Notes: generated by a model from the letters alone, not told the origin. A stretch of 60,342 nt of DNA from Pirellulales bacterium (GCA_044237545.1 JBIIFB010000001.1:1-60342), one strand, 5' to 3'. Shown: positions 12,120 through 53,922, numbered from the stretch's first letter. A program made the numbers and translations.

Positions 12120-12120
12120 C

Positions 12121-29731: not shown

Positions 29732-29835
29732 CCGATGGTGCTTCCCGGTGGGATCGCAGTCGGAAGCGGCCTCCGCCGGAGCCCTGGCATTCCAACTGCC
29801 TGGTTCAACGGTACCGGGAACCGCCGCAGAACGCA

Positions 29836-29864
29836 AACAAAAACCCCCTCAAAGGGGTGGGGTA
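29836..29864 (-). terminator. Second, weaker intrinsic-terminator-like hairpin
   Basis: Minus strand reads CCCC-TTTGA-GGGG(G) followed by TTTTTGTTT. Confidence 0.4.
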
Positions 29865-29963: not shown

Positions 29964-31316
29964 TCAGTCTCCGCGGAGCTTCAGGCCCCGCTCGGACAGC
30001 TTTTCCCGAACCTCATTCAGGCTCGTCACGCCAAAGTTCTTGCACTCCATCAGATCCTCGGCCGTTCGGCGGACGAGTTCGGAGATGGCATGAATGCCCA
30101 ATTTCGTGGTGCATTTCCGGGCTCGAACGGAGAGATTGAGTTCGGTGATCGGTTGTGAGAGCAGTTCCTGCTCGTCGGCAGAAGGCTCGGCCAACTCGGG
30201 CTCAGGCTCCTCGACCGGGGCTGGGGCGGCGAACTGTCCGAGGGAAAGCCCCTTGGAGGCGAGCATGTCCTTGATTTCCACCAGACTCGTCTCGCCGAAA
30301 TTCTTGCTCGCCAGAATCTCCGCCTCGCTGGTTTTCGCCAGGTCGCCTAGCGTGTTGATGCCCATCTTTTGCAGGCAGTTCCGGCTTCGCACGGAGAGCT
30401 CAAAATCGCTGACCGGCAGGTTCATGACCAGCTCGATTCGGTCACGCTGCTTCTGCTCCTGCTCCTCTGTCCGGAGGTCGCCCGCCGCGGAAGAATCCTT
30501 CATAAAAAGGCGGGCCCGCGGGTGATCCGGAATCGCCTCCAGAATCCGTCGGTAGCACTGCTGCGCCTTGGCGAAGTCGTTGCGATCCTCGTGCATGATG
30601 CCAAGATTGAGCAACGCTCCCAATGAGGCCGGATACCGTTCGAGCGAACGCTCGTAGCAGGCCCGCGCCTCGTCGTCGTTGCCGGCCCTGTCGTTGAGCA
30701 CGCCGAGCGCAAACAGGGCGTGTGAATGGCCGGGGTCGAGGGCGATCGCCTTTTCAAACGCCTCGGCGACTTCGTTCGCTGGGAAACCACGGTCGGCGAG
30801 GATTGCCCCCTTGACCGCCCAGTAGTCGGCCGACAGTGTTGCAGCCTCGCCATCCTTGCCCGCTGCCATCTCTTCGAGGGCTTTCGTGGCCTGGTCGTGA
30901 TGGCCGGCCGCCCGGAGGGCATCGGCCGCAGCCACGCCGCAGGCAATGGCGTCGTAGCCTGATTTTTTCGCGGCTTCAAAGGCCTCTCGGGCCTTGTCAA
31001 ACGCCTCGAGGGCAACGTGAGCGAGGCCTTGGTGATAGAGGGCCAGAGCTCCGCCGTCAGCCGACCGCAGCGTGTCGAGCGCGTCGCGGTAGCGGCCGAG
31101 CAAGTGCTGGCACACCCCCAGCCTGGCAGACGAAGCCGGGCTGCGATCGCTCATCTGCTCCAGTTCGCGAACCGCGCCGCGGACATCCCGGTGGGCCGAG
31201 GCATCACCCCCCAGGGCCTGGGTCAGCCCACGGATTTCGGCCGGACCGAAGGGGCCCGTACCGGTAATGAGTTCACGAATATCGAGGCCGTGAGCAATCT
31301 TTGCGGGGGCGACCAT
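29964..31316 (-). CDS. TPR-repeat protein with two RNA polymerase alpha-subunit C-terminal (alpha-CTD) domains
   Basis: Two copies resemble E. coli alpha-CTD (LELTVRSANCL...NLGKKSLTEIK). They are ELSVRSRNCLQKMGINTLGDLAK..KNFGETSLVEIKDML and NLSVRARKCTTKLGIHAISELVR..KNFGVTSLNEVREKL. The start at MVAPAK (31316) avoids overlap with the tRNA. Confidence 0.88.
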   Translation of the reverse strand: MVAPAKIAHGLDIRELITGTGPFGPAEIRGLTQALGGDASAHRDVRGAVRELEQMSDRSPASSARLGVCQHLLGRYRDALDTLRSADGGALALYHQGLAHVALEAFDKAREAFEAAKKSGYDAIACGVAAADALRAAGHHDQATKALEEMAAGKDGEAATLSADYWAVKGAILADRGFPANEVAEAFEKAIALDPGHSHALFALGVLNDRAGNDDEARACYERSLERYPASLGALLNLGIMHEDRNDFAKAQQCYRRILEAIPDHPRARLFMKDSSAAGDLRTEEQEQKQRDRIELVMNLPVSDFELSVRSRNCLQKMGINTLGDLAKTSEAEILASKNFGETSLVEIKDMLASKGLSLGQFAAPAPVEEPEPELAEPSADEQELLSQPITELNLSVRARKCTTKLGIHAISELVRRTAEDLMECKNFGVTSLNEVREKLSERGLKLRGD

Positions 31317-31358
31317 GAAAGGCCCTTTGTCAAAAGGAGGCAGAAGACGGCAACTGAG

Positions 31359-31432
31359 AGCCAGCGGTGGGAATCGAACCCACAACCCCCGCATTACGAA
31401 TGCGGTGCTCTGCCAATTGAAGCTACGCTGGC
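31359..31432 (-). tRNA. tRNA-Thr (anticodon CGU)
   Basis: The 74-nt cloverleaf folds by hand: acceptor GCCAGCG/CGCTGGC, D arm GCTT..GAGC, anticodon stem CCGCA/TGCGG with loop TTCGTAA, T arm GTGGG-TTCGATT-CCCAC, discriminator T. CCA is not encoded. Confidence 0.93.
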
Positions 31433-31490
31433 CCGACGGGACGGGAAACACGCTCGAGAAGGGCGGATTTCCAGTCTTCCGGAATCCCGC

Positions 31491-31520
31491 ACAGTAGCGC
31501 ACCGAACCGACAATAGTCAA
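31491..31520 (-). promoter_or_regulatory. Possible sigma70-like promoter for tRNA-Thr
   Basis: Minus strand reads TTGACT, 18 nt, TACTGT, about 55-85 nt upstream of the tRNA 5' end. This is a motif match only. Confidence 0.25.
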
Positions 31521-31572
31521 GAGTCAACGGGTGAAAAGCCCCTAGAAGAGAAAAGGGAACAGAAAAGGGAAC

Positions 31573-40343: not shown

Positions 40344-43300
40344 CTGTGGAGGCCGATGCCGAGCTGGTTGGTGCCAAACCAACTCCAGGCCGTGATGATG
40401 TTGCCGCCGATGGCAAAGAGTGCGAAGCCCCGGGGGCCGAGCCAGCGGTCCCACCGGGCGTGGAGGGCGGCCGCGTTCCAGAGCACGATCATCAGCGCAC
40501 CGTTTTCCTTCGGATCCCAGCCCCAGAAGCGGCCCCAGCTGTCGTCTGCCCAGAGGCCGCCGAGCACCGTGCCGATGAAGCTGAAGAAGAGGGCGAAGCA
40601 GACCACGCCGTAGGTCATGCGATAGAGCTGATCCTGCGACTGCCGGGCGGCGAGCCGTTGCTGCTCGGTCGACGTCGATGCCGTCCATCCGGCGGCGATC
40701 CGTTGCACGACCGAGAAGATGCCAAGCACGCCGGCCAGAAAGGTGGCACCGTAGCCGAGCGTGACCGTGATCACGTGTGTGGAAAGCCAGAACTGCGTGT
40801 CGAGAACCGCCTGCAAGACGTGCATGGTGTCGCCCGAATCGAGGCCATAGGCCACCATGAGCGTGAGCCCTCCGCTGAGGGCCGCCACCAGGTTGCCGAT
40901 GCCGTTGGCATGCAGTCCCTCGAGGGCCAGGCCCGCCAGCACGCAGGCCCAGCCGATAAAGACGGCGGAGGAATAGAGATTCACCACCGGCGGGCGGCCA
41001 GTGAGGTAGACGCGGCTGCCGAGGGCGAACGTGTGGAGCAGCAGAATGCCGACCAGCATCCAGAACACGAACCGGTTCAGTGGGCGTCGGCCGACCAGAA
41101 AGCTGGAAAAGCAGATGATCCCTGACAGCACGTAGAGCCACTTCGCCAGATCGGTGGGATTGAACCGGTTGAGCCAGGCCTCGAAGGCAGCCTTGTCGGC
41201 CGTGCTGCGAACCTCGGGCAATGAAGCCGTCGACGCCTTGAAAGCATCGAGGGCCCGGTTGAAGTCGGCCGGGGTTCGGGTCACCGCGCCAAGCAGTTCG
41301 GTCAACGGCAGCAGGCCGGGATGGACCTCGAAGGCCGGCTGTCCGGGCCGGCCAGCCAAAAGCTTGCTGACGATCGCAGATACCCAGGCCGGATAGAGCG
41401 ATTGCCATTGCCCATCGCTTTCGCGGGTCGACGACGCTCCCGCCATCGGCTTCGGGGGAAGTGCCGCCGGCGGATGACTGGCCTCGATCCGCCGGGCCAT
41501 CTGCATGACGCGCTCCATCTCGCCGAGCATTTCCTTCCGCGCCTCTTCCCCTTCCCCTGGATCGGGTAGCCGTGGGGTTTCGTAGCTGTAACGAAGCAGG
41601 TCGTAGGCCATCAGTTTCTGGTTGATCTCGGAGAACTTTTTCTGGGTGAAACTGAACTGTTCCGGCGGCACGTCCCGCATCGACTCCAACTGCGTGCGGA
41701 GTCTGGGAAGGCCGGCGTCGAGTTCGGCATGGCTGTAGCGATGCCCCTTTCGCCGCGTGAGGTCGAACAGGTCGGTGACCTCCTGCGCGTCGATGCGAAA
41801 CACCGGCGCATGCTCCACCCATTCCGCCCCTGCCATCATCCCGAGCATCCACCGCGCCGCCGAGACCGTGCCGACGGGCAGATCGGCGGGAGGCCGCGCG
41901 GCACCAACTTTGGCATCCCCGCCTGCCTGGGCCTCGCCTGCCTTCGGCATGATTACGCTCGTGCGGTTGCCGAGCAGTTGCAGCGTGTTGCGGGCCACGG
42001 TGTCGAGTGGCTTGATGCGTCCTTCGTGCAGCACCGGCAGGGCCGCCGCACTCCGCCAGTCGCGGGTGTCGTCTCGCGGTGACCGGTCGTAGTTCGCCAT
42101 CAGGCAGAACAAGGCCACGCACGACAGGGCAAGGACCGGAATGAGGAGTTCGGCTACCGGCGTTGCCGGCTGGCGAACCGTGCCCTCTGCCGATGCAAGC
42201 CGCTCCCCGGCGCGGCGGGCCGCCCGCCGTTGATTGCGACTCGCTCCCGCTTGTCCCCCCACGGTCGATGTTTCCACGGCATGAGCGGACCGGTCAGCAT
42301 GCACGTCATCCAGATCGCGGGGGCCGGTCAGGCCACGGTCGTAACGGTCCGCAAACCGCAGGAAAGTGCCGCCGAAGTGGGCGAGCATGCCCCACAGGGC
42401 CAGCACGCAGGCAACGTAGGGAATCAGCCAGCCGGCATTCTCCACGACCTGCAGGCCGGTCATCTCGCTCCGCGTGCCGTCGGGAAGCTCGACGGTCGAA
42501 TACTGGCTCTGGTAGAAGGTTTCGCCGCGGTAGCGGACCGGGTTGTTCATCCAGATCCGGCCGTCCTGCTGTGCATGCGTGGCGGTGTCGGTAAAGGTGA
42601 CGTAGGAGGAGTAGTCACGGGGCGTCTCGCTCGCGCCGTAGTTGATCCGGCGGACGTCCGTGAGCGCGACGGAGTAGGGTTTGTATTCGCGACGATACCG
42701 CAACTGGAGACGGTACGGCGTGCCGTCCACCTCGACGGTGTCGACCTCGTCACCACCGGCACCCATGAAGAGCTGTGCCTGGTCGTTGAGGTATTGGCTG
42801 ACCAGAAACGTGCCCAGATCGGCTCCGGTGGCCCGGTTCACAAGGTTCACATAGGCCGAAGAGATGTTGGGCTTGGAGCTAGCGCCCCCCTCTGGGGCTT
42901 TGTTCGTCGCCAGCCAACTCCTGCCGATCCCGGTCGTGGCCTGGTTCGGCGCCACCGGACCCACACGCATCACGCCGGAATTCGGAAAGAAGGAGAGCAC
43001 CCGCACGTCGAACGGCAGGCCATCCGGTTTGATCGGGTCGCCGCCGGTCCGGGCCTTGAGAAGGCGGCCGGAGATGACCGTCACCTGATCGTTGGCCGCA
43101 TCGGAAGACTGGATCACGGCCAGTTCGGTCTCGTCCGTACGCAGCGCCATGCTGCTCGACTGTCCCTCGATCAGCGCCATGCGCTCCTCGATCTGGCGGT
43201 CGCCAAAGGCAAACTGACCCAGCATGAGCAGTCCCACACCGAGATGGATCAGCACGTTGCCGCCACGGCTGCCGAACACCATGATCAGGCCCGCCAGCAG

Positions 43301-44044
43301 GATCAGCGATGCCACGCTCGACTGGATGAGTTGCCACATGATCCGCAGGCCCGGCTCACTCATCCGCCACCCCTCGCCGCCGAAGAGGCTGATCGCTGCC
43401 ACCGTGGCGGCGGATGCCGCGGCCACCCAGAGCACGATCCGGGTCAGCCGGCTGACATCACGCCCGGCGACCGCGGCCCAGCCCAGCCCTCCGGCCAGCG
43501 TTACAGCCGCGGCCTGCACAAGGCGCCAGACGGTCGCGTAGTCGATCGGCGGCCGGCCCTGCAATCCGTCGGCATAGTGGCCGCTCAGGATCACCAGCAG
43601 CGTCAAGAGGCCGCCCACCAGCGACACAATGGTGCCCGCCAGAAGCCTCGATCCGGTGGCATGGACTTGAAAACGGGTCAGCTTCGCGGCAATCAGGTTG
43701 ACCAGGAGCACCAGGCCGATCGTCGCCCCGCCCGGAAAGGGAAACCAGCCAGTGAGTGTCGATGGCCCAAAAACCGTGACGGGGAAAAAGTCGGAGAACG
43801 GCACCTGCGCGACCCAGCTGTTGAAATACTCCTGCTTCACCTCCGGCAGGTTTTTTTCGTCCTGCGCGAGCGTGCCGACGAACAGCACGAAGATGCCGGC
43901 GAGAAACATCACCACCGTGATCTTGAGTGATCCGGCCGCCCGAAGGGCCTGCCACGCAAGTGATCCGTCGCCGCGAGACGCGGTGCGGGCGGTGGCCCGT
44001 GTCGCCTGAGCGAAGCCATGCGAGTCGAGACTGCCAGTGGCCAT
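40205..44044 (-). CDS. ccsBA: Fused system II cytochrome c biogenesis protein (ResB/Ccs1-like N-terminal part plus CcsA C-terminal part)
   Basis: The ResB-like N-terminus is LKITVVMFLAGIFVLFVGTLAQ. The CcsA WWD motif is WGRFWGWDPKENGALM. ATG 44044 is preferred, and GTG 44098 would overlap the upstream stop. Confidence 0.86.
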   Translation of the reverse strand: MATGSLDSHGFAQATRATARTASRGDGSLAWQALRAAGSLKITVVMFLAGIFVLFVGTLAQDEKNLPEVKQEYFNSWVAQVPFSDFFPVTVFGPSTLTGWFPFPGGATIGLVLLVNLIAAKLTRFQVHATGSRLLAGTIVSLVGGLLTLLVILSGHYADGLQGRPPIDYATVWRLVQAAAVTLAGGLGWAAVAGRDVSRLTRIVLWVAAASAATVAAISLFGGEGWRMSEPGLRIMWQLIQSSVASLILLAGLIMVFGSRGGNVLIHLGVGLLMLGQFAFGDRQIEERMALIEGQSSSMALRTDETELAVIQSSDAANDQVTVISGRLLKARTGGDPIKPDGLPFDVRVLSFFPNSGVMRVGPVAPNQATTGIGRSWLATNKAPEGGASSKPNISSAYVNLVNRATGADLGTFLVSQYLNDQAQLFMGAGGDEVDTVEVDGTPYRLQLRYRREYKPYSVALTDVRRINYGASETPRDYSSYVTFTDTATHAQQDGRIWMNNPVRYRGETFYQSQYSTVELPDGTRSEMTGLQVVENAGWLIPYVACVLALWGMLAHFGGTFLRFADRYDRGLTGPRDLDDVHADRSAHAVETSTVGGQAGASRNQRRAARRAGERLASAEGTVRQPATPVAELLIPVLALSCVALFCLMANYDRSPRDDTRDWRSAAALPVLHEGRIKPLDTVARNTLQLLGNRTSVIMPKAGEAQAGGDAKVGAARPPADLPVGTVSAARWMLGMMAGAEWVEHAPVFRIDAQEVTDLFDLTRRKGHRYSHAELDAGLPRLRTQLESMRDVPPEQFSFTQKKFSEINQKLMAYDLLRYSYETPRLPDPGEGEEARKEMLGEMERVMQMARRIEASHPPAALPPKPMAGASSTRESDGQWQSLYPAWVSAIVSKLLAGRPGQPAFEVHPGLLPLTELLGAVTRTPADFNRALDAFKASTASLPEVRSTADKAAFEAWLNRFNPTDLAKWLYVLSGIICFSSFLVGRRPLNRFVFWMLVGILLLHTFALGSRVYLTGRPPVVNLYSSAVFIGWACVLAGLALEGLHANGIGNLVAALSGGLTLMVAYGLDSGDTMHVLQAVLDTQFWLSTHVITVTLGYGATFLAGVLGIFSVVQRIAAGWTASTSTEQQRLAARQSQDQLYRMTYGVVCFALFFSFIGTVLGGLWADDSWGRFWGWDPKENGALMIVLWNAAALHARWDRWLGPRGFALFAIGGNIITAWSWFGTNQLGIGLHSYGFTSGVLLLLAGFVASQLFVIAAGWALTRSSSDGESHRSRSGLV
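40206..40237 (+). repeat. Single REP-like unit (v2 type) between or within convergent gene ends
   Basis: catacaagcccggagcgtgagcgatgggattc matches the family consensus. Confidence 0.85.
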
Positions 44045-44088
44045 GGGCGTGGGTTCCGTGCTGTGCTGTGGCGGTGGGTGTCGGTGGG

Positions 44089-44784
44089 TCACTTCCACCG
44101 GATCGAGCGGATGAACTCCGTGAACGGTTCACGGAGGCTGCGGGCGAGACCGGCGGATCCCTTGAATTTGACGAACAGCGACACCGACTCTTCCAGCGGA
44201 ATCATGGCGGCAAGAATTGCCTGCTGTTTCTCCGGGCTCTTATCTTCGGGGCTCTGGTCTTCCGGGCTCTGGTCTTCCGGGCTCTGGCTCTCCGGAAGCC
44301 GGCTCTCCGGGCTCTGGTCGAGGAGCAGGATGATGGTGCCCTCCACGCCGTTGACTGAAACTTTTTCAGCCTGCTCGATGGCTCGCGACACCAGTTCGGG
44401 GCCCGCACCAGGGGTCAGTTGCTCCTGCCAGCGGGCGGCGTTGCCCTGGAGCGTGCCCGAAGCCGGAATGATCGTGATCTCGCCACCCCCCCCCGCGGCA
44501 TCGGAGCCTATTGTGAGCGTAGCCAGACGCATGCCGCTGGCTCCCAGGTCCGTCCAGCCAGCAGGCAGGTCGTACTCGAGCGCAAGTCCGCCGGGAGCCG
44601 CCATGGTCCCCCGGCCGGCAGGCGGTGACGGCCCGCCGATCGCGGTCCGCGGGGCCTTCTCCACCGACCGGGGCACGGTGTAGGTTCGCAGGTCGTTCGG
44701 CTGGATGTCGGCAGAGGGACGGCAGGAGGCCGCCGACCCGGCAACGATCACACAGTACAGCCAACGGCTCGAGGAACACATCAT
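44089..44784 (-). CDS. Hypothetical lipoprotein with a SPEDQ-type acidic repeat linker
   Basis: Signal and lipobox are MMCSSSRWLYCVIVAGSAASC. It contains the SPESRLPESQSPEDQSPEDQSPEDKSPE repeats. It lies directly upstream of the cytochrome c synthase gene. Confidence 0.68.
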   Translation of the reverse strand: MMCSSSRWLYCVIVAGSAASCRPSADIQPNDLRTYTVPRSVEKAPRTAIGGPSPPAGRGTMAAPGGLALEYDLPAGWTDLGASGMRLATLTIGSDAAGGGGEITIIPASGTLQGNAARWQEQLTPGAGPELVSRAIEQAEKVSVNGVEGTIILLLDQSPESRLPESQSPEDQSPEDQSPEDKSPEKQQAILAAMIPLEESVSLFVKFKGSAGLARSLREPFTEFIRSIRWK

Positions 44785-44830: not shown

Positions 44831-46066
44831 CTACCGCCAGCCAAAAACCGAGGAAAGTGGATTCAAAAGAGGGCTCGACAGGCTCAGTTCGCCCGGGCTA
44901 CCGATGGTTCGCATCAGGTCGAACATCACAAAGCCGCCAGTCATCAACAGGAGGGCGCAGCAGACCAGCCCGCAGATCTGCAAGACGCTGAAGCGTGTGT
45001 CACGGACCACATCCACGGCGTCGATCTCGCCGAGATCGGTCCCGGCTGCAACCCCGTCTGCCGGCATGTCACCACTGAAGTCGGAGCTTTCGCTCGCCTC
45101 AATGGGGAAGAAGCTCGAGTCACCCGACTCAGGTTCCACGGCGACAACCGAGCCATCATCCTCGTCGCCGTCAAGGTCGCCAAGGTCGAACTCATCTCCC
45201 GCCAGAGCGGTGGCGCCGTCTTCGTCGAGATCACCTCCCTCCAACATCCCAATGTCGATTCCCGACACGGCTGCGTCGCCATCCTCCAGCGAGAGCCCGC
45301 TGTCGAGCGCCCCTGAGAGGGCGGCTCCGGCGTTGGTCAGCGGGCCCGAGAGCACCGCAGGGTCGACGTCCGAACCGAGTACCAGCGAACCTGTGGCATT
45401 CGAGCCGACGGCGTTGCTGGGCTGCGAACCGATTCCAATACCGGAAAGGTCGATCGCAAGTGTGCCGGAATCGGCCGGGGCAGCGGGCTTGCCCGCCGTC
45501 GGCTTTCCTGCCGGTTTGTCCAGAGAGACCGGCAGGGCAGATGCCGATGCGGCGAGCGATGGCGATGAAATACCGACGATGGAATCGAGATCGAGATCCA
45601 TGGCGTCGAGCCCGAACGCCTCGCCCGTGCCCAGCATCGTCTGCGCAAGATCGTCCTGTGCGGCAGTCCCGCCGCCAAAGATCGACTCTCCCGCAGGGGC
45701 CAACCCAGATCCGCCGCCACCGCCCGTGGGACTGTCATCCGCCAGGCCGATGCCTGACAGGTCGAGGTCGACAGTCTGTCCGGGGCCGGCGACCGGTGCG
45801 GAAGGGAGCGGTGTTGCCGCAGCGATCGACTCGTGTGGCGGCCCGGCAGCCACGTCATCCAGGTCGAGTTCCAAACCCAAACCGGATGGCTCGCCTGCGT
45901 CAGCACCTTCTGCCGAGAGCCGCTCGATCTCGTCGATCTTGAATTTGAGCGTTGCCCCGTCGCGGAGTGGATAGAGCTTTTTTCGCTCAACGAGACGATG
46001 CACCTCGTCGACGGAAACGCCGAGTTGGCGGGCAGCTTCTTCGATCAGGAGGAATTTTCCGGCCAT
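44831..46066 (-). CDS. Helix-turn-helix (excisionase/MerR-like) protein with a long acidic disordered region and a C-terminal TM anchor
   Basis: The N-terminus FLLIEEAARQLGVSVDEVHRLVERKKLYPLRDG is typical of the HTH_17/excisionase type. The C-terminal hydrophobic helix is ICGLVCCALLLMTGGFVMF. Confidence 0.75.
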   Translation of the reverse strand: MAGKFLLIEEAARQLGVSVDEVHRLVERKKLYPLRDGATLKFKIDEIERLSAEGADAGEPSGLGLELDLDDVAAGPPHESIAAATPLPSAPVAGPGQTVDLDLSGIGLADDSPTGGGGGSGLAPAGESIFGGGTAAQDDLAQTMLGTGEAFGLDAMDLDLDSIVGISSPSLAASASALPVSLDKPAGKPTAGKPAAPADSGTLAIDLSGIGIGSQPSNAVGSNATGSLVLGSDVDPAVLSGPLTNAGAALSGALDSGLSLEDGDAAVSGIDIGMLEGGDLDEDGATALAGDEFDLGDLDGDEDDGSVVAVEPESGDSSFFPIEASESSDFSGDMPADGVAAGTDLGEIDAVDVVRDTRFSVLQICGLVCCALLLMTGGFVMFDLMRTIGSPGELSLSSPLLNPLSSVFGWR

Positions 46067-46269: not shown

Positions 46270-46704
46270 TTATTTCGGCATTTCGAGCATTTTCTTCAGG
46301 GCCGCTGGTTTTGGTTCCTGCGCGTTGAAGTCCTCGACCATCAGATCCCAGCGAACGTCTCGTGTGCTCTTGAGGGTGAGCGTGCCGCTGGAAGGGTCGA
46401 CGTGGTAGATGGCCAGAGCCCGGTTTTGCTGGTCGACCATCAACAGCATCTGTCGGCCATCTTCGAGGGGCGTTGCCTGAATCCAGAGAGAGCCCATCTG
46501 GTCGCTCGGTCCGACGGGCAGCGGACGCCCGGCCCGCTGTGCGGCCAGCCCGCCGCTCCCGAGCATCGCGGCAAGGGCGACCCCCGCACACACGCAGCCC
46601 GAGGCAATGAGAACCTGTCGGACTCCACTGCGGGCATTCCAGAAACGTCCCACAGCATGAATCGCGGGTCGAAGCACGGGAATCCAGCCGCTCGGGTTCT
46701 GCAT
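46270..46704 (-). CDS. Hypothetical small secreted or membrane-anchored protein
   Basis: The ORF has G/C-rich third positions. The start at MQNPSGW (46704) gives the signal anchor VLIASGCVCAGVALAAMLG. Confidence 0.55.
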   Translation of the reverse strand: MQNPSGWIPVLRPAIHAVGRFWNARSGVRQVLIASGCVCAGVALAAMLGSGGLAAQRAGRPLPVGPSDQMGSLWIQATPLEDGRQMLLMVDQQNRALAIYHVDPSSGTLTLKSTRDVRWDLMVEDFNAQEPKPAALKKMLEMPK

Positions 46705-47021
46705 GGGGTTCTGCCTGGGATGGGCAGTCCGGGGTGGGGGCAAGTGGATGAGGCCGGGGAGGCAGGCTTGAACACCGCACCAGCACGGGAAAAGTCTACG
46801 GTCGCTCACACGCAGGCGACAAGCGAGCGATGCCAACATAGGACCGCCTGCGGCTGCCCAGATTGCCTTGTCTGCCAGGGCCGTTCCGCCTCACGCACTG
46901 TTTCGGTTTGTCGGATGTTTCGATTCAATCGGTCGGGCAGAGTCTACCGATGGAAGAGGGACGTCGGTACGACTATGCGTTCCGGCATCGTCGCTTCCCG
47001 CCGTTTCGGAGGACATTCCAC

Positions 47022-48335
47022 GTGTCGAAACTCAATGCCGTCGCGACCCTTCTGATTCGCTCGCCCTTGCTGTGGGGAGGGGCGATCTCCTTCTGCTTCT
47101 TCGCCATGATTCACGGGGGTGTCATCACCGACGTCAACGTGGTGCGGTATCTGGCGGGCCACTGGGTCGAGTATGTCGAAGTCGTGATGTTCTGCGTCGG
47201 CCTGTCGGCCCTACTGCTGATGGTCGCCGACTTTGCCAGACAGCGGCGGCACGTCGGTCGGCAGTGGCTCGAGCCGATTCCGGAGGGGGGGCAGAACCCG
47301 GCCGATGCCCCCGCCCTCGCCGCAGTCCTCGACACGGCCGCTGACGAGGGCGGGCCGGCCGCGTCGGGCTACCTCGTCCGCAGGCTTCGCGAGGCCGTCG
47401 ATCTGGTGGTGCGGACGGGCTCGGCCGACTCGCTCGAGGACCATCTCAAGTATCTGTCCGATCTCGATGCGGCCCGGGCCGCGCAGAACTACGGCCTGGT
47501 GCGGTTCGTGATCTGGGCCATCCCGATCATGGGCTTCCTGGGCACCGTGATCGGCATCACCGTGGCCATTGCCTGCCTCTCGCCGACACAGTTGGAAAAC
47601 ATCTCCGGCGTGGTGGCCGGCCTCGGGACCGCGTTCGACACCACGGCGACCGCCCTGGGACTGTCGATGGTGCTGATGTTCATGCAGTTCATCATCGATC
47701 GCTACGAGCAGTCGTTGTTGGCGGAGGTGGACTCGGCGGCATGGTCAGCACTGGCAGGCCGGTTTCAATCGCTCGCCGGGGACGGTGGTGCGACGCTGGC
47801 GGTCGCGCGGCTCAGCGAAACCGTCAGCCGCAGCTCGGCTCGGCTGCTCGAGGCGCAGGAACAATCGTGGCGTTCGCTCGAGCGGACCGCTGCAGGGAAC
47901 CTCTCGAAGGTGCTCGACGATGCGGGCCGCACGCTGAATCAATCGCTCTCGCAGTCGCTCGACGGCACGCTGGCCAAGTGGAGCGACTCGCTCGTGGCGG
48001 CCCACGAGAGTCTGATCTCAAGGCGTGAGGATCGCTGGACGCAGGCAGCCGAGTCGCTGGCGGCCGCAGTCCGCGGACTCGAACACCATCATGGCAGCAT
48101 CGCCGACCAGACGGCACTGCTCGGGAAGGTGGTCGAGGCCACCCGCGACATCGCGACGCTCGAGCGGTCTCTCGACGCCAACCTGAACACGCTGGCGACG
48201 ACGGGCCGTTTCGACGAGACCCTGGCGACGTTGGCCGCGGCGGTGCAATTGTTGGCGGCACGCGCCGGCGACGTCACCGGCGAATCGCGTCGCATTGAGC
48301 TGCAGCCCGCCCGTCGCGTCGGAAAGGTTGCATGA
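47022..48335 (+). CDS. MotA/TolQ/ExbB proton-channel family protein with an extended helical C-terminal tail
   Basis: GTG 47022 sits 9 nt after GGAGG (47008-47012). The channel signature is FVIWAIPIMGFLGTVIGI...GLGTAFDTTATALGLSMVLMFMQFIIDR. A Leu/Ala/Ser-rich tail of about 170 aa follows. Confidence 0.85.
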   Translation: MSKLNAVATLLIRSPLLWGGAISFCFFAMIHGGVITDVNVVRYLAGHWVEYVEVVMFCVGLSALLLMVADFARQRRHVGRQWLEPIPEGGQNPADAPALAAVLDTAADEGGPAASGYLVRRLREAVDLVVRTGSADSLEDHLKYLSDLDAARAAQNYGLVRFVIWAIPIMGFLGTVIGITVAIACLSPTQLENISGVVAGLGTAFDTTATALGLSMVLMFMQFIIDRYEQSLLAEVDSAAWSALAGRFQSLAGDGGATLAVARLSETVSRSSARLLEAQEQSWRSLERTAAGNLSKVLDDAGRTLNQSLSQSLDGTLAKWSDSLVAAHESLISRREDRWTQAAESLAAAVRGLEHHHGSIADQTALLGKVVEATRDIATLERSLDANLNTLATTGRFDETLATLAAAVQLLAARAGDVTGESRRIELQPARRVGKVA

Positions 48336-50290
48336 GCCGCAAACAACCCGCTGCCGGGCCGACCATATCGCTGTTTCCGTTTCTGGCCGTGCTGCTCTGC
48401 ACGATGGGCGCGCTGCTGGTGCTGCTCGTCCTGTTCAGCAGGTCTGCCAAACATGGCGAGACTGCCGAGGCAACCCGTGAACGCGAACAGCTCGAGCAGG
48501 AACTGGAGCTCGCGCGGGACAGCCTCGCCTGGCGGCGGGATCAGTTGGCCGGCGTTCGCGAGCGGACGGCCGAGGAATTGGCCAAGGCCCGGATTCAACT
48601 GGCTGGCGTCGAGGAGAACACCCGCGGCCTCCAGGACGAACTCGAGAAGCTCGGCCGCACGGCAGCGGCCTTGGCGTCAAACACGGGCGTGATCGCGGCG
48701 GACGAAGAGACACTCCGCGGGCTCGAAAAGAAGCTGACCAACGCGCGGGAATCGCTCGACAAGGCCCGTGCCGACCAGAAAACGAAGGCTCCTGCCTACG
48801 CCGTCGTGCCCTATGACGGCCGCAACGGCACGCACCGTCGTCCCCTCTACATCGAGTGCTGCGGCGATGGCGTCTTTCTGCAGCCCGAAGGAATCCGGCT
48901 GAGTCCGGGTGACTTCGAGGGGCCGCCGGGGCCCGGCAATCCGCTGGCGAGTGCGTTGCGGGCGGCACGGGAACACGTCGTTGCGTTGCAGGCAGGCACG
49001 AACGATCCGGCAGCGCAGCCCTATCCCCTGCTGCTGGTACGGCCGTCGGGGGTGATGGCCTACTACGCCGCTCGGGAGGCGATCCAGTCGTGGGGCAGCG
49101 ACTTCGGCTATCAGCTCATCGACGAGGATTGGACGCTCACCTTCCCGCCCCCCGATTCCACGCTGGCCCAGGTGGAGAGGCGGGCGATCGAGGAATCACG
49201 GGCGCGGCTGGCATGGCTGGCGGAAGTGCGGCCGACGCGGCCTGTCAAGCCGCCGCAACAGTACAGGGCCGCACCGACCCGCGGCGGCGTGGTCGCCGAC
49301 GGCGGCCCGAGCGTGCTCGGCGATCAGTCCCGTTGGGACTGGAAGAATTCGGCACAGGCAGGAGGCTCTGTGGCCGGCGGCAGCCCCCGTCCGGGAGGCG
49401 GTGGCGGGGGACTTGGCAGCGGTGGCGATGGCTCAGGTGAGGGCGGCTCAGGCGGCAGTCGGGGCGACGGAAGAGGGCCCGCCGGTGCGGGTGGCTCGGC
49501 AGGCGCTTCGGGGTGGGGCCAACAGGGTGGGGCCACCGCCGGCGGCAATCCCGCAGGCGGCACGGCCGCGGTTGGTGATCGTTACAGCGGCACTTCGACG
49601 TTTGCCGGTGGCGGTGCAGGATCGGCCGGTAGCGGTGGTGACAGCGCTACGGGCAGCCTGGCTGCGACTGGCAGTGCGGGAGGGACGAGTGCCGCGGGAG
49701 GGCCTGGTAGCGCGGGGGCGGCTGGCACTGCGACGAGCCCAGGTGGCACGGGGAACGGCACCAATTCACAGGGCGGCTCCTCGGGCGGCGGGAGCGGCCC
49801 TGCCATGCCGGGCCTTCACCAGGCCGGGGGCAGCGCCGCCGGACAGGCCGGTGCTGCGGCAGCAGGCGGTTCGGCGTCGTTGTCGCAATCGCGCGGCAGA
49901 AACTGGGCCAGCCTCGCCACGCAGGATCGCCCGATCCCGCTCACGCGACCGATCCGCCTCGAATGCGGGCTCAACGAATTCAGGATGCTCGACGACACGG
50001 GCCGCCGCGTGGAATACCGCATCCCACTATCAGGCGACACCGCGGCGGCCATCGATCCGCTCGTGGCGGCGATCCATGCGAGGGTGAACACCTGGGGCAT
50101 CGCGGGAGATCGCATGTACTGGAAGCCGCAGTTGGTGCTCTCCGAGACGGCCGACGGCAGGTCGCGGCGCGAGGATCTCGAACGGCTGCTGGCCGAAAGC
50201 GGCATCGACACACGATCCAAAGACACTCGCGACCAGATCCGTCCCCTGCCCCCGATCGAACGGACCTCTGCAGTCGTGCCCGCCCGTTGA
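48332..50290 (+). CDS. Hypothetical single-pass membrane protein: coiled coil, globular module, Gly/Ser/Ala-rich spacer, C-terminal module
   Basis: ATG overlaps the upstream stop (ATGA). The N-terminal TM is ISLFPFLAVLLCTMGALLVLLVLF. A heptad-like region is EQLEQELELARDSL...LEKKLTNARESLDKA. Confidence 0.75.
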   Translation: MSRKQPAAGPTISLFPFLAVLLCTMGALLVLLVLFSRSAKHGETAEATREREQLEQELELARDSLAWRRDQLAGVRERTAEELAKARIQLAGVEENTRGLQDELEKLGRTAAALASNTGVIAADEETLRGLEKKLTNARESLDKARADQKTKAPAYAVVPYDGRNGTHRRPLYIECCGDGVFLQPEGIRLSPGDFEGPPGPGNPLASALRAAREHVVALQAGTNDPAAQPYPLLLVRPSGVMAYYAAREAIQSWGSDFGYQLIDEDWTLTFPPPDSTLAQVERRAIEESRARLAWLAEVRPTRPVKPPQQYRAAPTRGGVVADGGPSVLGDQSRWDWKNSAQAGGSVAGGSPRPGGGGGGLGSGGDGSGEGGSGGSRGDGRGPAGAGGSAGASGWGQQGGATAGGNPAGGTAAVGDRYSGTSTFAGGGAGSAGSGGDSATGSLAATGSAGGTSAAGGPGSAGAAGTATSPGGTGNGTNSQGGSSGGGSGPAMPGLHQAGGSAAGQAGAAAAGGSASLSQSRGRNWASLATQDRPIPLTRPIRLECGLNEFRMLDDTGRRVEYRIPLSGDTAAAIDPLVAAIHARVNTWGIAGDRMYWKPQLVLSETADGRSRREDLERLLAESGIDTRSKDTRDQIRPLPPIERTSAVVPAR

Positions 50291-50307
50291 ACCGTGGAGT
50301 CCGCGTG

Positions 50308-51303
50308 ATGCCGCGTCCCAGGCCAGAAGATATCAGCTCCGCCGGTCAGGACTCGTTCCTCGACGTGGTCACCAACATCGTCGGCATCCTCATCATTCTG
50401 GTGATGGTGATCGGCGGCCGGGTGCAACAGATCATTCTCACCGCACCGCCAGCCACGTCCTCGCGTGTGCAGGGCCTTGAAAAAGAAGTGGAGCTGCTCG
50501 ATCAGCAGGTCGCCCTCGCGGAGAGCGACGTTCACGAGTTGGCCGTCCAGGGGCGCACGGTGGCGACGGCCGCCGCCTTCGCGGGCGAGGCGCGATTGCA
50601 ACTCGCCACGGCCGTGTCGGCCGCCACGCTGGAGGTCGAGCGAGTCAAGCAGGAGACGGACGTCGTGAAGGTGAAGGCGGCAGAGTCGGCGGCACGACGC
50701 AAGGAACTGGAAGCGGAGGTCGAACGCTGCAAGCTCGAGGCCGAGGGGCTCGCGCACGTGCCGGCCACGACGAAGGAGGTGCTGGCCTATCCGACGCCGG
50801 TGGGCCGCACCGTCAACGGCGAAGAGATTCATTTCCGGCTGGGCGAGGGGCGGATCGCGTTCATACCGATCGAGGACCTCTTCGAACTGGCGAAGTCGCA
50901 GACGCGGCGGCATTCCGGCTCGCTTGCCGAGATGGCTTCGCGGATCGAGTCGGTCGGCCCTGTGCAGGGGTTTTCGCTCGATTACGTCATCGAGGCGAAG
51001 GTGGACCAGTCACGGGGGCAGGTGCTGATCCGGTCGCGAGAGTGGGTGGTTCGGCCGGTCGGCACGGGCACCGGGGAGACCTCTGACGAGGCGCTTTCGC
51101 CCCACTCGAAGTTTCGCCTGATTCTGGCGGCGGTGACGCCCGAGACAACGGTCACGCTCTGGTGCTATCCCGACAGCTTCGACGTCTACCGCAAGGTCCG
51201 CGAGGAGTTGCACCGCCAGGGCATCCCCGCGGCCTGCCGGCCCATGCCCGAGGGGGCCCCGATCGGCGGTTCCACCGAAGGCAGCAAGTCGGTCGTGCAG
51301 TAG
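50308..51303 (+). CDS. Hypothetical single-pass membrane protein with an ExbD/TolR-like TM anchor and a coiled coil
   Basis: ATG 50308 follows GGAG (50296-50299). The TM is DSFLDVVTNIVGILIILVMVIGG. The coiled coil is LEKEVELLDQQVALAESDV.... Confidence 0.75.
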   Translation: MPRPRPEDISSAGQDSFLDVVTNIVGILIILVMVIGGRVQQIILTAPPATSSRVQGLEKEVELLDQQVALAESDVHELAVQGRTVATAAAFAGEARLQLATAVSAATLEVERVKQETDVVKVKAAESAARRKELEAEVERCKLEAEGLAHVPATTKEVLAYPTPVGRTVNGEEIHFRLGEGRIAFIPIEDLFELAKSQTRRHSGSLAEMASRIESVGPVQGFSLDYVIEAKVDQSRGQVLIRSREWVVRPVGTGTGETSDEALSPHSKFRLILAAVTPETTVTLWCYPDSFDVYRKVREELHRQGIPAACRPMPEGAPIGGSTEGSKSVVQ

Positions 51304-51454: not shown

Positions 51455-52522
51455 ATGACAGACACGATGGCAGGCCATTCCTGGCCGGTGGCAGGGGTGT
51501 TTACGAGGGTGTTTGCCGGTCTGCTCCTTGTCGGCGGAGTATGCTCCGCCGGACTGGCCGGGGCGGCAGATGCCCCGCCGTCGGTGCCGGCGACCAATCC
51601 TTTGGCTGAATTGGTCACCCTCCCCTACCAGCCGCGGGCCAGCACGCAGGGGGCGATCCGGCTGGTGGGATCGACAACGCTCCAACAGGCGGCAGCCCAC
51701 TGGGTGCAGGGGTTTCAACGGATCCACCCGCAGGCAAGGTGCTCGATCGAGACTGCCGGCTCCGAGGTGGGCTGGAAGGCGCTCGCCGAGGGGAAGGCCG
51801 ACATGGCCCTGCTGAGCCGGCCTGTCAGCGACGCAGAGAAGGCGGCCTGGAGCCAGGGGCATAAGAGCAGGCTTGCGGTCGTGGTCGCCGGCTTCGAGCG
51901 GTTGGTCTGGATCGTGCACCCATCCAATCCCGTTCGCGAACTCATCTGGTCTCCCGAGACCGGCATCCTGCAGGCAGCAGTCCAAGGCGGTAGCGTGACG
52001 CCCGAGTCGCTGGCAGCGACGCACTGGGACCGTCTGAATGGAGACACCTCCTGGAGCGACGTGCCCATCCGGGTGCACGGCCGAGGGCTGACTTCTGGAA
52101 CACGTTGGCACATCGATCGGATGCTCACCGGCGCGGTGCCTTGTCAACTCACGATGATCGAGCACAAGGCCGGGGCCGAGTTGGCCGAGGCCGTGGCTGC
52201 GGACCGCGGCGGCCTCGGGCTCGTCGGCGAGGAGCATGCCAGTCGGCCCGACGTGAAGCGTCTGCCGGTGCTGATCACTCCCCAGGCGGCGGCCTTGGCC
52301 GATGCCGTGGTGGGTTCGGATCGCAGCCCCGACTGCCGGCCGCTGTTCCTCGCAGTGGCTATTCCCCCCGAGGGGGAGATGGCAGCTGAACTGCGGGAAT
52401 TTCTTGAGTATGTGCTCAGCTACTCGGGGCAGTTAGATGTGGCCAAAGATGGTCTGCTGCCGCTGTCGCGTGGTGAGATCCATGCCCAGAAAGAGCTGCT
52501 CGGGTGGTCGATAGCGAGGTAG
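51455..52522 (+). CDS. PstS-like periplasmic phosphate/anion-binding protein (PBP family)
   Basis: It has a signal peptide. IRLVGSTTLQQAAAHWVQGFQRIHP...IETAGSEVGWKALAEGKADMALLSRP is a typical PstS-family core. Confidence 0.82.
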   Translation: MTDTMAGHSWPVAGVFTRVFAGLLLVGGVCSAGLAGAADAPPSVPATNPLAELVTLPYQPRASTQGAIRLVGSTTLQQAAAHWVQGFQRIHPQARCSIETAGSEVGWKALAEGKADMALLSRPVSDAEKAAWSQGHKSRLAVVVAGFERLVWIVHPSNPVRELIWSPETGILQAAVQGGSVTPESLAATHWDRLNGDTSWSDVPIRVHGRGLTSGTRWHIDRMLTGAVPCQLTMIEHKAGAELAEAVAADRGGLGLVGEEHASRPDVKRLPVLITPQAAALADAVVGSDRSPDCRPLFLAVAIPPEGEMAAELREFLEYVLSYSGQLDVAKDGLLPLSRGEIHAQKELLGWSIAR

Positions 52523-52531
52523 TGGGAGCCA

Positions 52532-52729
52532 GTAGAAGCCCTGAGAGTAAGCGACGGGATCGGAATAGAAGCCCTGAGCGTAAGCGACGGGATGAGAATA
52601 GAAGCCCTGAGCGTAAGCGACGGGATCGGAATAGAAGCCCTGAGCGTAAGCGACGGGATCGGGATAGAAGCCCTGAGCGTAAGCGACGGGATCGGAATAG
52701 AAGCCCTGAGCGTAAGCGACGGGATCGGA
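52532..52729 (+). repeat. Six head-to-tail copies of the 33-nt REP-like unit ATAGAAGCCCTGAGCGTAAGCGACGGGATCGGA
   Basis: Copies start at 52532, 52565, 52598, 52631, 52664 and 52697. There are a few point differences and no spacers. Confidence 0.97.
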
Positions 52730-52773
52730 ATGAACAGACTCTTCCAGGCTCAACAGGAGCTTATGTTTCACAT

Positions 52774-53922
52774 ATGACTTCCATCGGTGATCGTTGTTCG
52801 TCGTTCGTTGGGTTCCGATTGGCCCGTATGCGGCCGGTCGTCGCGCTCGCCTGCCTCGCCTCGGTTGGCTTGGGAACGGGCCCGGCGCAATCAATGGCGC
52901 AGGACGTCCGCACGCGAGATGCCGGTAGTGTCGTCGCGGGGTACTCCTCTGGCGCCGCTGTTGCCACTGCTCCCGCTGTTCCACGGCCCGCGCCGCTTCC
53001 ACTGGGCATCATGGCACGCAACACGGCCAACGGTGTCGAGGTGGTCAATGTGAATCCAGGCTCGGTGGCCCAAGCCTCGGGCCTGCAGGCGGGCGACACG
53101 ATCATCAACGTCGCTGGCTATCAGGTCGGTATGGTTGAAGACCGGCTCTACGACGTCGGGGACGAGGTGGCCAGACACCTGAATGCATCCGGTCAGGTGC
53201 CGCTTCTGGTGCGCAACGGTCGGACCGGAGCTCTCGTGACCATGCCCGCACAGTTCGGCACGGCGTCGCGGGCGATCAGCGGCGTGCTCAATGCACCGCA
53301 GGGGCTGCAGGTGCCGTCGACCGCCGTGATCACGGTGCGGCTGCTTGACGTCACCGAGCCGCAATGGCGGGACGTCGCCCTGACCCAGGGCCAACTGCCG
53401 GCGGCGCGGGGCTTTCCTGTCTCGTATCGGCTCGATCCGCCGGTGCCCACCGCGGGGCATCGCTACGCGGTCGATGCCCGGGTGGAGGATGGTGGTCGCC
53501 TGCTGTTGCAGACGGCCACGCCGGTGCCGCTGGCGGCGCTCGACCGAGAACAGCGTGTCGATCTCGCGCTTGTGCAGGCGGCTGCGCCACCGACGGCGGT
53601 CTCGGTCGTGCCGAGTGCCCAGATTCAGCAATGGATCCAGACCTATCTCGGCCGCCCGCCGCGGCCCTACGAAACGGAGGTCTGGCTGGCTGACCTGCAG
53701 CAGGGCAAGTCACTCGCCGACGTGCAGGCGGGCATTCTGAGCAGTTCGGAATATTTCGAGCGGCAGCGGTCCAGCCGTGATGTCTACGTTGCCGAGGTGT
53801 TTCGGCAGCTCTACGGCACGCCGCCGACGCCGGCGCAGCTTGCCGACATGCAGCGGCGGTACGACAGCGTGCAGGGTGTGCGGTTGCAGTTCGTGCAGCA
53901 GTTGCTTCAGCAGTCGCGTTAG
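52774..53922 (+). CDS. Secreted PDZ domain protein with a YbaY-like segment and a DUF4214-like C-terminus
   Basis: The start is placed after the repeat array (MTSIGD 52774, alternative MRPVVALACL 52828). The PDZ segment is GVEVVNVNPGSVAQASGLQAGDTIINVAG. The C-terminal SSSEYFERQ...FRQLYGTPPTPAQL resembles DUF4214. Confidence 0.78.
   Translation: MTSIGDRCSSFVGFRLARMRPVVALACLASVGLGTGPAQSMAQDVRTRDAGSVVAGYSSGAAVATAPAVPRPAPLPLGIMARNTANGVEVVNVNPGSVAQASGLQAGDTIINVAGYQVGMVEDRLYDVGDEVARHLNASGQVPLLVRNGRTGALVTMPAQFGTASRAISGVLNAPQGLQVPSTAVITVRLLDVTEPQWRDVALTQGQLPAARGFPVSYRLDPPVPTAGHRYAVDARVEDGGRLLLQTATPVPLAALDREQRVDLALVQAAAPPTAVSVVPSAQIQQWIQTYLGRPPRPYETEVWLADLQQGKSLADVQAGILSSSEYFERQRSSRDVYVAEVFRQLYGTPPTPAQLADMQRRYDSVQGVRLQFVQQLLQQSR

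Follow-up and report, generated by a model that had tools for sequence, protein, structure and literature searches.

We analyzed three consecutive genes on the forward strand, termed g1, g2, and g3 here, in a 60,342-nt stretch of the genome of a Pirellulales bacterium (GCA_044237545.1, JBIIFB010000001.1:1-60342; the whole stretch is called the window below). g1 (47022..48335) encodes a MotA/TolQ/ExbB-family channel subunit of 437 amino acids (aa), and g2 (48332..50290) and g3 (50308..51303) encode single-pass proteins of 652 and 331 aa, respectively, neither of which received a family assignment. The start codon of g1, GTG at 47022, is the start shared by most g1 homologues (M/VSKLN..., 437 aa). 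g1 and g2 are joined by an ATGA, in which the ATG of g2 at 48332 overlaps the TGA of g1 at 48333-48335. The stop codon of g2 (TGA, 50288-50290) is followed by a 17-nt gap up to the ATG of g3 at 50308, and a GGAG is located at 50296-50299, 8 nt 5' of this ATG; g3 terminates with TAG at 51301-51303. The coordinates, the codons, and the starts of the homologues agree with a first-pass annotation of this DNA, made from the sequence alone, which had described three tightly packed genes on the same strand with an ATGA overlap and a 17-nt gap. The GC content of the window is ~67%, and that of the third codon positions is 0.76-0.82 in the frames of g1, g2, and g3. Hundreds of conserved protein homologues were found for each of the three. 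Because of the bias at the third position and the hundreds of homologues, we regard g1-g3 as real genes rather than chance open reading frames (ORFs) of high-GC DNA. The homologues of g2 numbered 1249, and those of g3 (E ≤ 1e-3) fell into 1363 clusters at 50% identity, almost all of which were full length. The proteins of the trio are annotated in databases only as "hypothetical protein." A scan for promoters and terminators detected no signal exceeding shuffled expectation.

g1 was matched by the Pfam family MotA_ExbB (PF01618) with 41.2 bits, over the cut-off of 22.9 (E = 1.7e-10), at residues 122-232 (47385..47717), and the MotA/TolQ/ExbB signature attributed to this gene in the first-pass annotation is thus upheld. 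Among the matches listed, PF01618 was carried by 120 of 120 g1 homologues. This core, delineated by Pfam, phmmer, and the family alignment, comprises two putative pore-lining helices with Thr175 and Thr207/208. Four hydrophobic segments were found by hydropathy at residues 17-35 (weak), 54-72, 169-187, and 207-225, suggesting a MotA-like topology. E. coli ExbB was the sole relative of g1 among the PDB sequences below an E-value of 0.01. In the phmmer alignment, residues 51-217 of g1 correspond to residues 18-188 of E. coli ExbB, with GTVIGI and ATALGL of g1 opposite GTVWGI and ATAIGL, respectively. LGT175V.GI and AFD-T207-T208-A were invariant in the family alignment of g1, including the members that are 28-43% identical, and Thr175 and Thr207/Thr208 occupy the positions of the pore-lining threonines in ExbB, TolQ, and MotA. 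On the other hand, the scores against the NCBIfam equivalogs were all low, namely 21.2 bits for exbB2 (cut-off 135), 16.1 for exbB (206), 14.6 for tolQ (221), 9-14 for MotA/PomA (340-380), and 10.5 for antiphage_ZorA_4 (500). Across the ExbB and TolQ equivalogs, a score of ~21 bits is set against cut-offs of 135-402. As g1 falls far under every ExbB, TolQ, MotA, PomA, and ZorA equivalog cut-off, we regard it as a distinct branch of the superfamily.

The four hydrophobic segments of g1 are followed by a long C-terminal tail (residues 226-437, ~210 aa; 47697..48332). In the phmmer alignment, the residues after the ExbB-aligned core amount to ~56 in E. coli ExbB and ~220 in g1. The tail was 209-266 aa in length across all relatives examined and was kept in 19 of 19 aligned members, in which Q279, W283, and L309 are conserved. 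Judging from its hydrophobic periodicity of 3.6-3.65 and its composition, it may be a helical cytoplasmic extension, and it contains several Gly breaks. The ZorA models of PADLOC matched g1 partially and weakly (E = 1.6e-4 to 3e-3), with matches in the tail at an E-value of ~5e-4. The extra tail proposed in the first-pass annotation is therefore present and long in comparison with ExbB, but its length is ~210 aa, not the ~170 aa given there. It is not a feature of any characterized subfamily holding g1, as the 10.5 bits of g1 against the ZorA cut-off of 500 indicate.

Both g2 and g3 possess one hydrophobic helix at residues 17-35 by hydropathy. The transmembrane (TM) helix of g3 comprises residues 15-37 (DSFLDVVTNIVGILIILVMVIGG; 50350..50418) and opens with DSFLD19, with the codon of Asp19 at 50362-50364. 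Asp19 was found in 258 of the 261 full-length relatives, and D15, S16, F17, L18, D19, N23, and G26 were each conserved at 93% or more in 61 diverse members. The TM helix of g2 comprises residues 14-36 (ISLFPFLAVLLCTMGALLVLLVL; 48371..48439) and bears Ala19 (FPFLA19V) where g3 has Asp19. Ala19 was found in 121 of 121 sequences, and neither a charged residue nor His is present in the helix. Residues 14-29 of g2 are near-invariant across seven diverse lineages. In each of the two helices, about 16 consecutive residues are conserved on all faces, as expected of helices enclosed by protein. The two helices are in the same register, sharing F17-L18-X19 and G26. Alignments with hhalign related the N-terminal regions of g2 and g3 to each other with a probability of 93% (E = 2e-7) and the helices alone with a probability of 85% (E = 6e-6), values that may be inflated by composition. 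Judging from these alignments, the TM helices of g2 and g3 are paralogous. There is one more invariant residue in the g2 helix, Cys23; two other invariant Cys residues of g2, Cys176 and Cys545, occupy equivalent positions of the two modules described below (YIEC and RLEC). These Cys residues may take part in disulfides, metal binding, or something else.

The likeness of these helices to those of ExbD and TolR was seen at the level of motifs. SFLDV of g3 lines up with PFIDV, and ISLFPFLAV of g2 with INVTPFIDV, of E. coli ExbD and TolR (LLDV in TolR), but the line-up is not significant, and hhalign against E. coli ExbD and TolR yielded a probability of <4% with a two-sequence template. Of the ExbD/TolR-like anchors proposed in the first-pass annotation, the single TM helix of each protein was thus recovered and the likeness to ExbD was not recovered beyond the motif, while the Asp reported as kept in gene 3 and absent from gene 2 proved to be a family-wide distinction.

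In both proteins, the TM helix is followed by a heptad coiled coil of ~100 residues. The stalk of g2 (residues ~40-152; 48449..48787) was predicted by AlphaFold2 (AF2) as helices at residues 15-115 and 125-151, and that of g3 (residues ~50-146; 50455..50745) as a helix at residues 51-145. Both showed a periodicity of 3.50, which was reached by only 2 of 500 shuffles in the case of g3. The lengths of the g2 and g3 stalks in seven lineages were 156/159, 162/163, 162/161, 160/156, 167/157, 241/216, and 215/216, respectively (Pearson r = 0.97), with a joint lengthening by ~60-80 residues in the two loci L148 and L149. A Pro/Glu/Val-rich extended insert was found directly after the TM helix of both g2 and g3 in L148 and L149, and the g1 tails of the same two loci are ~45 residues longer than that of g1 in the window.

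Beyond its stalk, g2 contains two α/β modules separated by a disordered linker. Module 1 (residues ~153-335; 48788..49336) is highly conserved (YAVVPY.G..GTHRRPLYIEC...), with low confidence in the AF2 model. The linker (residues ~340-515; 49349..49876) is composed of 39% Gly, 20% Ala, and 14% Ser, and its predicted local distance difference test (pLDDT) scores were 30-40. It spans 178-300 aa among close relatives, some of the more distant relatives have a shorter one, and the corresponding alignment columns are variable. Module 2 (residues ~520-625; 49889..50206) was predicted as β-β-β-α-β-α with a pLDDT of ~80 (residues 540-625). The two modules were aligned by hhalign with a probability of 84% (E = 8e-6), and, on the basis of this alignment, module 2 is a duplicate of module 1. 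The α/β domain of g3 (residues ~155-312; 50770..51243; pLDDT 70-85) has the conserved motifs YPTP...HFRL and W-x-YPDSF, and P164, V169, P218, W285, Y287, and P312 are invariant. This domain was not significantly related to the g2 modules (hhalign probability 2-4%). g3 ends in a peptide (residues 311-331; 51238..51300) with the pattern R-P-[LM]-P-x-G-x-P-I-[GS]-G-S-x-x-G-S-[KR]-S-x-x-Q, which was predicted to be disordered (pLDDT <50) and is near-invariant down to ~30% overall identity. The peptide may serve as a docking peptide. The long coiled coils and the Gly/Ser/Ala spacer of gene 2, both anticipated in the first-pass annotation, were reproduced, the former by the AF2 helices and the 3.50 periodicity and the latter by its composition and pLDDT scores below 40 at residues ~340-515.

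No family was found for g2 or g3. Searches of Pfam, NCBIfam, and PADLOC with the whole proteins and five fragments yielded coiled-coil noise alone, in which the lone match of g2 to a ZorB model of PADLOC (E = 0.056) fell within the coiled coil. PF02472 (ExbD/TolR) matched neither g2, g3, and the fragments nor any of the 61 diverse g3 relatives, and no other Pfam family matched those relatives when searched one by one. OmpA-like and vWA domains were not found in g2 or g3 by Pfam. The PDB sequence searches with the profiles of g3, of the TM helix, and of g2 gave coiled-coil noise and retrieved no ExbD, TolR, or MotB chain. In the Foldseek search of the PDB with the AF2 models, the best E-values were 0.08 for g3 and 0.16 for g2, and nothing was found at E ≤ 1e-3. 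The weak top matches were RNase-H-like β-β-β-α-β-α proteins (integrase, RuvC, S11, and ASKHA), and no ExbD, TolR, TonB, or TolA was among the matches. The β-β-β-α-β-α order of g2 module 2, taken from a model of moderate to low confidence, is compatible with an ExbD-type fold, and Foldseek returned no ExbD/TolR match for it. Furthermore, a canonical ExbD/TolR was not found in 1.48 Mb of related planctomycete contigs at E < 1e-3. Altogether, profiles, hhalign, and Foldseek gave no statistical support to the resemblance of the α/β segments to the periplasmic fold of ExbD that the first-pass annotation had suggested. Its view that genes 2 and 3 are not ordinary ExbD/TolR, and its core reading of a MotA/ExbB-type channel with two non-canonical single-pass coiled-coil partners, stand on the PF01618 match of g1, the absence of PF02472 from all 61 g3 relatives, the absence of any ExbD/TolR chain from the PDB matches, and the lack of a family match for the partners.

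To examine the conservation of the trio, we collected 64 loci from GTDB and 80 from metagenomes, in which the three genes were always found together wherever the contig was long enough, and distant loci reached via representative proteins. In total, 82 loci had enough flanking sequence to be evaluated. The trio was intact in 82 of the 82 evaluable loci, with g3 identities of 28-99%, and the conservation as a block in related genomes, which the first-pass annotation had proposed to test, is evident down to the lowest of these identities. By tblastn, g1 and g2 were found upstream of g3 in 81 of the 82 loci, and the remaining one, L149, has a PF01618 gene in its gene table. The scans of GTDB and metagenome contigs retrieved mostly close relatives (57-99% identity), and the closest relatives in GTDB were metagenome-assembled genomes (MAGs) of freshwater Pirellulales and Planctomycetia. 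Seven distant relatives were sampled, and six of their loci, including one from Thermoguttaceae, had enough flanking sequence. The gene order was the same in 6 of 6 distant loci, with the MotA_ExbB gene (436-502 aa) first, an unannotated gene (515-768 aa) second, and the g3 relative last. The trio was also seen on two contigs of a single MAG in JBIIOM01 (L017 and L025, whose g3 is 71% and 66% identical to that of the window) and in JBGTKO01 (L057 and L063), which could be a second copy, strain mixing, or bin contamination.

The genes flanking the trio vary by lineage, with CcsA/ResB and a helix-turn-helix (HTH) protein in the window, UbiA elsewhere, glycosyltransferases, and, in three loci, GatCAB and L28 on the downstream side. 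Across the compared loci, no further gene was conserved as a fourth partner. The window contains housekeeping genes such as those for pyruvate kinase, argininosuccinate synthase, RF1, PrmC, and ComEC. Among the larger ORFs scanned in the 60-kb window, we detected no TonB, TolA, Pal, OmpA-like, flagellar, nuclease, or helicase gene, so that the absence of such neighbors and effectors from the surroundings of the trio, another point of the first-pass annotation, is borne out for these ORFs. No defense gene was found among the window genes scanned, and no ZorC/ZorD/ZorE-like, nuclease, or helicase gene in the window or the distant loci.

An adjacent partner with a conserved TM carboxylate is a hallmark of the superfamily to which g1 belongs, and g3 with Asp19 is such a partner, its gene sharing an operon with g1 in each of the 82 evaluable loci. 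We propose that g1, g2, and g3 constitute one inner-membrane complex of the MotA/ExbB/TolQ 5:2 rotary-motor kind that has been inherited vertically in Planctomycetia, a proposal to which we give an even chance of being correct. Family membership and the conserved residues suggest that the trio is an ion-driven machine; we infer its stoichiometry, topology, and rotation as well as the periplasmic direction and target of its output. In this complex, g1 would be the pentameric proton channel and the rotor ring. The N-terminal helix of g3 would be placed in the g1 pore, with Asp19 as the proton-binding carboxylate facing Thr175 and Thr207/208, and the Ala19 helix of g2 would stand beside it as the second helix of the axle. 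In the periplasm, g2 and g3 would lie alongside each other in a ~15-nm heptad coiled-coil stalk, lifting the α/β domain of g3 and module 1 of g2 well above the membrane, and the flexible linker of g2 (~60-300 residues) would let module 2 reach a partner in the wall or the outer membrane. Proton flow would turn the ring and the axle against each other, by which the g2 linker may be twisted or reeled and the partner pulled. g2 would in effect unite a transpore helix of the ExbD type with an arm of the TonB/TolA type. The five g1 tails, ~210 residues each, may extend into the cytoplasm and brace or regulate the ring from there.

The g2:g3 heterodimer as the axle in the pore is the version of this motor that we prefer, with a confidence slightly short of even. 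The paralogy of the two helices, their identical register, the conservation on all faces, and the matched stalks speak for it. Moreover, AlphaFold3 models place pairs of heterologous transpore helices, which carry non-ExbD periplasmic domains, in TolQ-like pentamers (PMC12204202). Several points weigh against the heterodimeric motor. The covariation of the stalks amounts to essentially one or two independent lengthenings (L148 and L149; Spearman p = 0.09), confidence in the AF2 models is moderate to low (pLDDT 67 and 54), and the g1 tail is putatively helical, as judged from its periodicity and composition. g2 and g3 are, as far as their sequences tell, statistically unrelated to ExbD/TolR. 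The periplasmic modules match nothing known, and therefore no target can be named. We know of no characterized pore dimer with a single carboxylate, and each monomer of the heterologous pairs in PMC12204202 retains an Asp. The potential salt bridges at the e/g positions do not favor the heterodimer, with 10 attractive and 2 repulsive pairs in a g3 homodimer and 6 and 3, respectively, in the best g2:g3 register, albeit the count is crude (the agreement of the heterodimer register was 55%, and the register assignment is itself crude) and thus not decisive.

As only one carboxylate would be left in the heterodimer and, by the crude salt-bridge count, the g3 stalk suits a homodimer at least as well, the main rival is a canonical axle, in which a g3 homodimer with two Asp19 sits in the g1 pentamer, with g2 attached to the outside of the ring in the manner of TonB and TolA. 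We regard this arrangement as possible but doubtful. The g2 stalk would pack along the g3 coiled coil, the linker and the terminal module would work as a force-transducing arm, and the trio would be a Ton/Tol-like Q-R-A triad made of unrelated or paralogous parts. Every solved 5:2 motor works with two carboxylates, a mechanism that would be retained here, and the loss of Asp from all 121 g2 sequences is easily explained if the g2 helix is off the proton path; the e/g pattern of the g3 stalk is homodimer-friendly, as described above. The layout of g2, a TM helix followed by a long linker and a C-terminal domain, mirrors that of TonB and TolA, and the force transducers in PMC12204202 are laid out similarly. 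Nevertheless, the g2 helix is paralogous to that of g3 and in the same register, and its residues 14-29 are conserved on all faces, not on one. TonB and TolA bind the motor via the SHLS motif and His, neither of which is present in the g2 helix.

Three further readings depart from the proposed motor more widely. The trio could be an ordinary ExbBD/TolQR system with a fast-evolving ExbD/TolR that works for a TonB or TolA from another locus. In NCBIfam and the PDB, g1 indeed matches ExbB best, though weakly, and FLDV of g3 lines up with PFIDV of ExbD and LLDV of TolR, but g1 scores 21 bits against equivalog cut-offs of 135-402, PF02472 matched none of the 61 g3 members and no fragment, the partners are coiled-coil proteins of 331 and 652 aa in comparison with ~140 aa for ExbD/TolR, and the 1.48 Mb of related contigs had no canonical ExbD/TolR. 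We consider this reading already largely refuted and highly improbable. A machine that makes no use of the proton gradient appears improbable as well. In such a machine, the family signature of g1 would persist in a static channel or scaffold, with g2 and g3 as structural envelope spacers or tethers fixing the distance between the inner membrane and the wall; the matched coiled-coil stalks of ~15 nm recall molecular rulers such as Lpp, the carboxylate is kept in only one of the two helices, and no output partner could be identified by the PDB sequence or Foldseek searches. On the other hand, the strict conservation of Asp19 (258 of 261), LGTV, and FDTTA down to 28-30% identity is hard to explain without proton coupling, and an Asp in the middle of the membrane is costly unless it is used. 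It is quite improbable, too, that the trio is a Zorya-like device for phage defense or envelope stress, in which the periplasmic modules would hold on to the wall or sense it, the g1 ring would rotate, and its long tail would relay the signal to cytoplasmic partners encoded elsewhere. The long helical C-terminal tail of the A subunit is a hallmark of ZorA, the g1 tail is conserved in every member, and some of the weak PADLOC matches to ZorA (E = 1.6e-4 to 3e-3) fall in the tail. The ZorA tail is, however, much longer than the ~210-aa tail of g1, the NCBIfam ZorA score is far below the cut-off (10.5 bits vs. 500), and there is no peptidoglycan-binding, OmpA-like ZorB; the lone ZorB-model match of g2 (E = 0.056) is confined to the coiled coil. 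No ZorC/ZorD/ZorE-like effector, nuclease, or helicase gene accompanies the trio in the window or the distant loci. Finally, defense systems spread patchily, whereas the synteny of the trio is vertical and extends across the order, at 60-99% identity and in a housekeeping setting. The ZorA-like tail is the one feature pointing toward a cytoplasmic output, while the vertical synteny, the housekeeping setting, and the absence of effectors argue against defense.

We compared the trio with other systems of this class. ExbB-ExbD-TonB and TolQ-TolR-TolA resemble it in that the A subunit is of the same Pfam family with the pore motifs GTV.GI and TA.AL.L, the single TM helix of an adjacent small partner carries an Asp near its start, a long linker connects the TM helix of the third protein to a C-terminal domain, and the three are encoded in one operon. 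In contrast, g1 has four hydrophobic segments and a ~210-aa tail, g2 and g3 are outside ExbD/TolR by any profile and bear unrelated α/β modules and ~100-residue stalks, the helix of the arm protein g2 is in the ExbD register without the Asp and is not of the SHLS/His type, and no TonB-dependent receptor, TolB, or Pal is linked to the trio. MotA-MotB and PomA-PomB share with the trio a four-segment A subunit and an Asp in the helix of the partner, but the trio has neither an OmpA-like peptidoglycan-binding domain nor flagellar genes, its scores are 9-14 bits against cut-offs of 340-380, and its pore motifs are of the ExbB/TolQ type. GldL-GldM and PorL-PorM are similar in concept only, being proton-driven inner-membrane motors with a single-pass partner that forms a long dimeric periplasmic shaft. 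Unlike g1, GldL is not a PF01618 protein; unlike g2 and g3, the homodimeric GldM is built of four globular domains instead of a coiled coil; and no type IX secretion system or gliding genes are present with the trio. The trio would work in the manner of a Ton/Tol-type or transpore-helix-type energizer. Since defining features were tested and are lacking, it is not a member of ExbBD, TolQR, MotAB, or Zorya. The nearest precedent is the TolQ-like proteins paired with heterologous transpore-helix vWA proteins (PMC12204202; Mol Biol Evol 2025). As in the trio, a TolQ-like gene without an ExbD/TolR gene is adjacent to genes for two different single-pass proteins, the N-terminal helices of which were proposed to enter the pentamer, there is no relation between their periplasmic parts and ExbD, and the function is unassigned in both cases. 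The vWA domains of those systems are replaced by coiled coils and novel α/β modules in the trio, the Asp present in both partners there is kept only in g3, and the A subunit of the trio has a long, putatively cytoplasmic tail. Those systems are found mainly in Proteobacteria and Verrucomicrobia, while the trio is found in Planctomycetia.

[quoted passage not shown] The trio appears to be a real, conserved branch of 5:2-type proton motors with unusual partners, undescribed as far as we found. Our literature searches found no paper describing it, and its genes are not mentioned in the main text of the transposon-directed insertion-site sequencing study of Planctopirus limnophila (PMC10632474). 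What is unusual in the trio is the pair of paralogous transpore helices with one carboxylate, the long periplasmic stalk, the TonB-like arm fused to an axle-type helix, and the ZorA-like tail in a housekeeping setting. The trio is a natural test case for a 5:2 motor running on one Asp and a concrete candidate for unexplained envelope or budding functions of planctomycetes. These bacteria lack FtsZ-based division. Tol-Pal was reported to be largely reduced in Planctomycetes (PMC8871954), and this reduction makes a role of the trio in envelope maintenance or budding attractive as a candidate idea. In its boldest form, which we consider unlikely, the trio would be the planctomycetes' own trans-envelope force generator, a 5:2-type motor with an obligate heterodimer axle, a single Asp, and a built-in TonB/TolA-like arm, that tethers or constricts the outer membrane in FtsZ-less budding as Tol-Pal does elsewhere. 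If this were the case, the two-carboxylate rule of 5:2 motors would not be universal, and the trio would put a name to a component still missing from our picture of the envelope and division of planctomycetes.

Some of the genes surrounding the trio deserve a brief description. Upstream on the opposite strand, a gene at 44831-46066 (-) encodes a 411-aa protein with an N-terminal HTH_17 domain, ~300 residues of acidic/Gly-rich low complexity, and a C-terminal hydrophobic anchor, which looks like a tail-anchored DNA-binding protein in its predicted architecture. Nearly all close loci and the distant locus L147 have the HTH_17 gene upstream of the trio, whereas it does not precede the trio in L145, L146, L148, L149, or L151. 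Another ORF at 46270-46839 (-), of at most 189 aa with one hydrophobic segment, is divergent from g1 and syntenic in the close clade and received no family assignment. Downstream of the trio, at 52504-53922 (+) and 51455-52522 (+), are a PBP_like_2 (phosphate-binding-protein-like) gene and a gene for a protein with a PDZ domain and a YscW-like lipoprotein-chaperone domain. Being syntenic in the closest relatives only, the two are probably unrelated to the trio. Proteins with PSCyt1, PSCyt2, and PSD1 domains are encoded nearby and mark the window as planctomycete DNA. Farther upstream, ResB-like and CcsA-like domains (cytochrome c assembly, system II) are fused in one polypeptide of 1297 aa (40205-44098, -). 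A 519-aa protein (29964-31523, -) has the unusual architecture of TPR repeats and two RNA-polymerase alpha C-terminal domains (E = 1.5e-41), and the gene at 28526-29848 (-) encodes a Rho_N domain followed by DUF4912. At the beginning of the window, two giant ORFs at 1-6918 (+) and 6600-12119 (+), of at least 2305 and 1839 aa, were assigned a BamB-like PQQ β-propeller in the first and an NPCBM domain in the second, with most of their lengths lacking a domain assignment, and they are followed by a gene for a DUF4159 protein at 12094-12978 (+).

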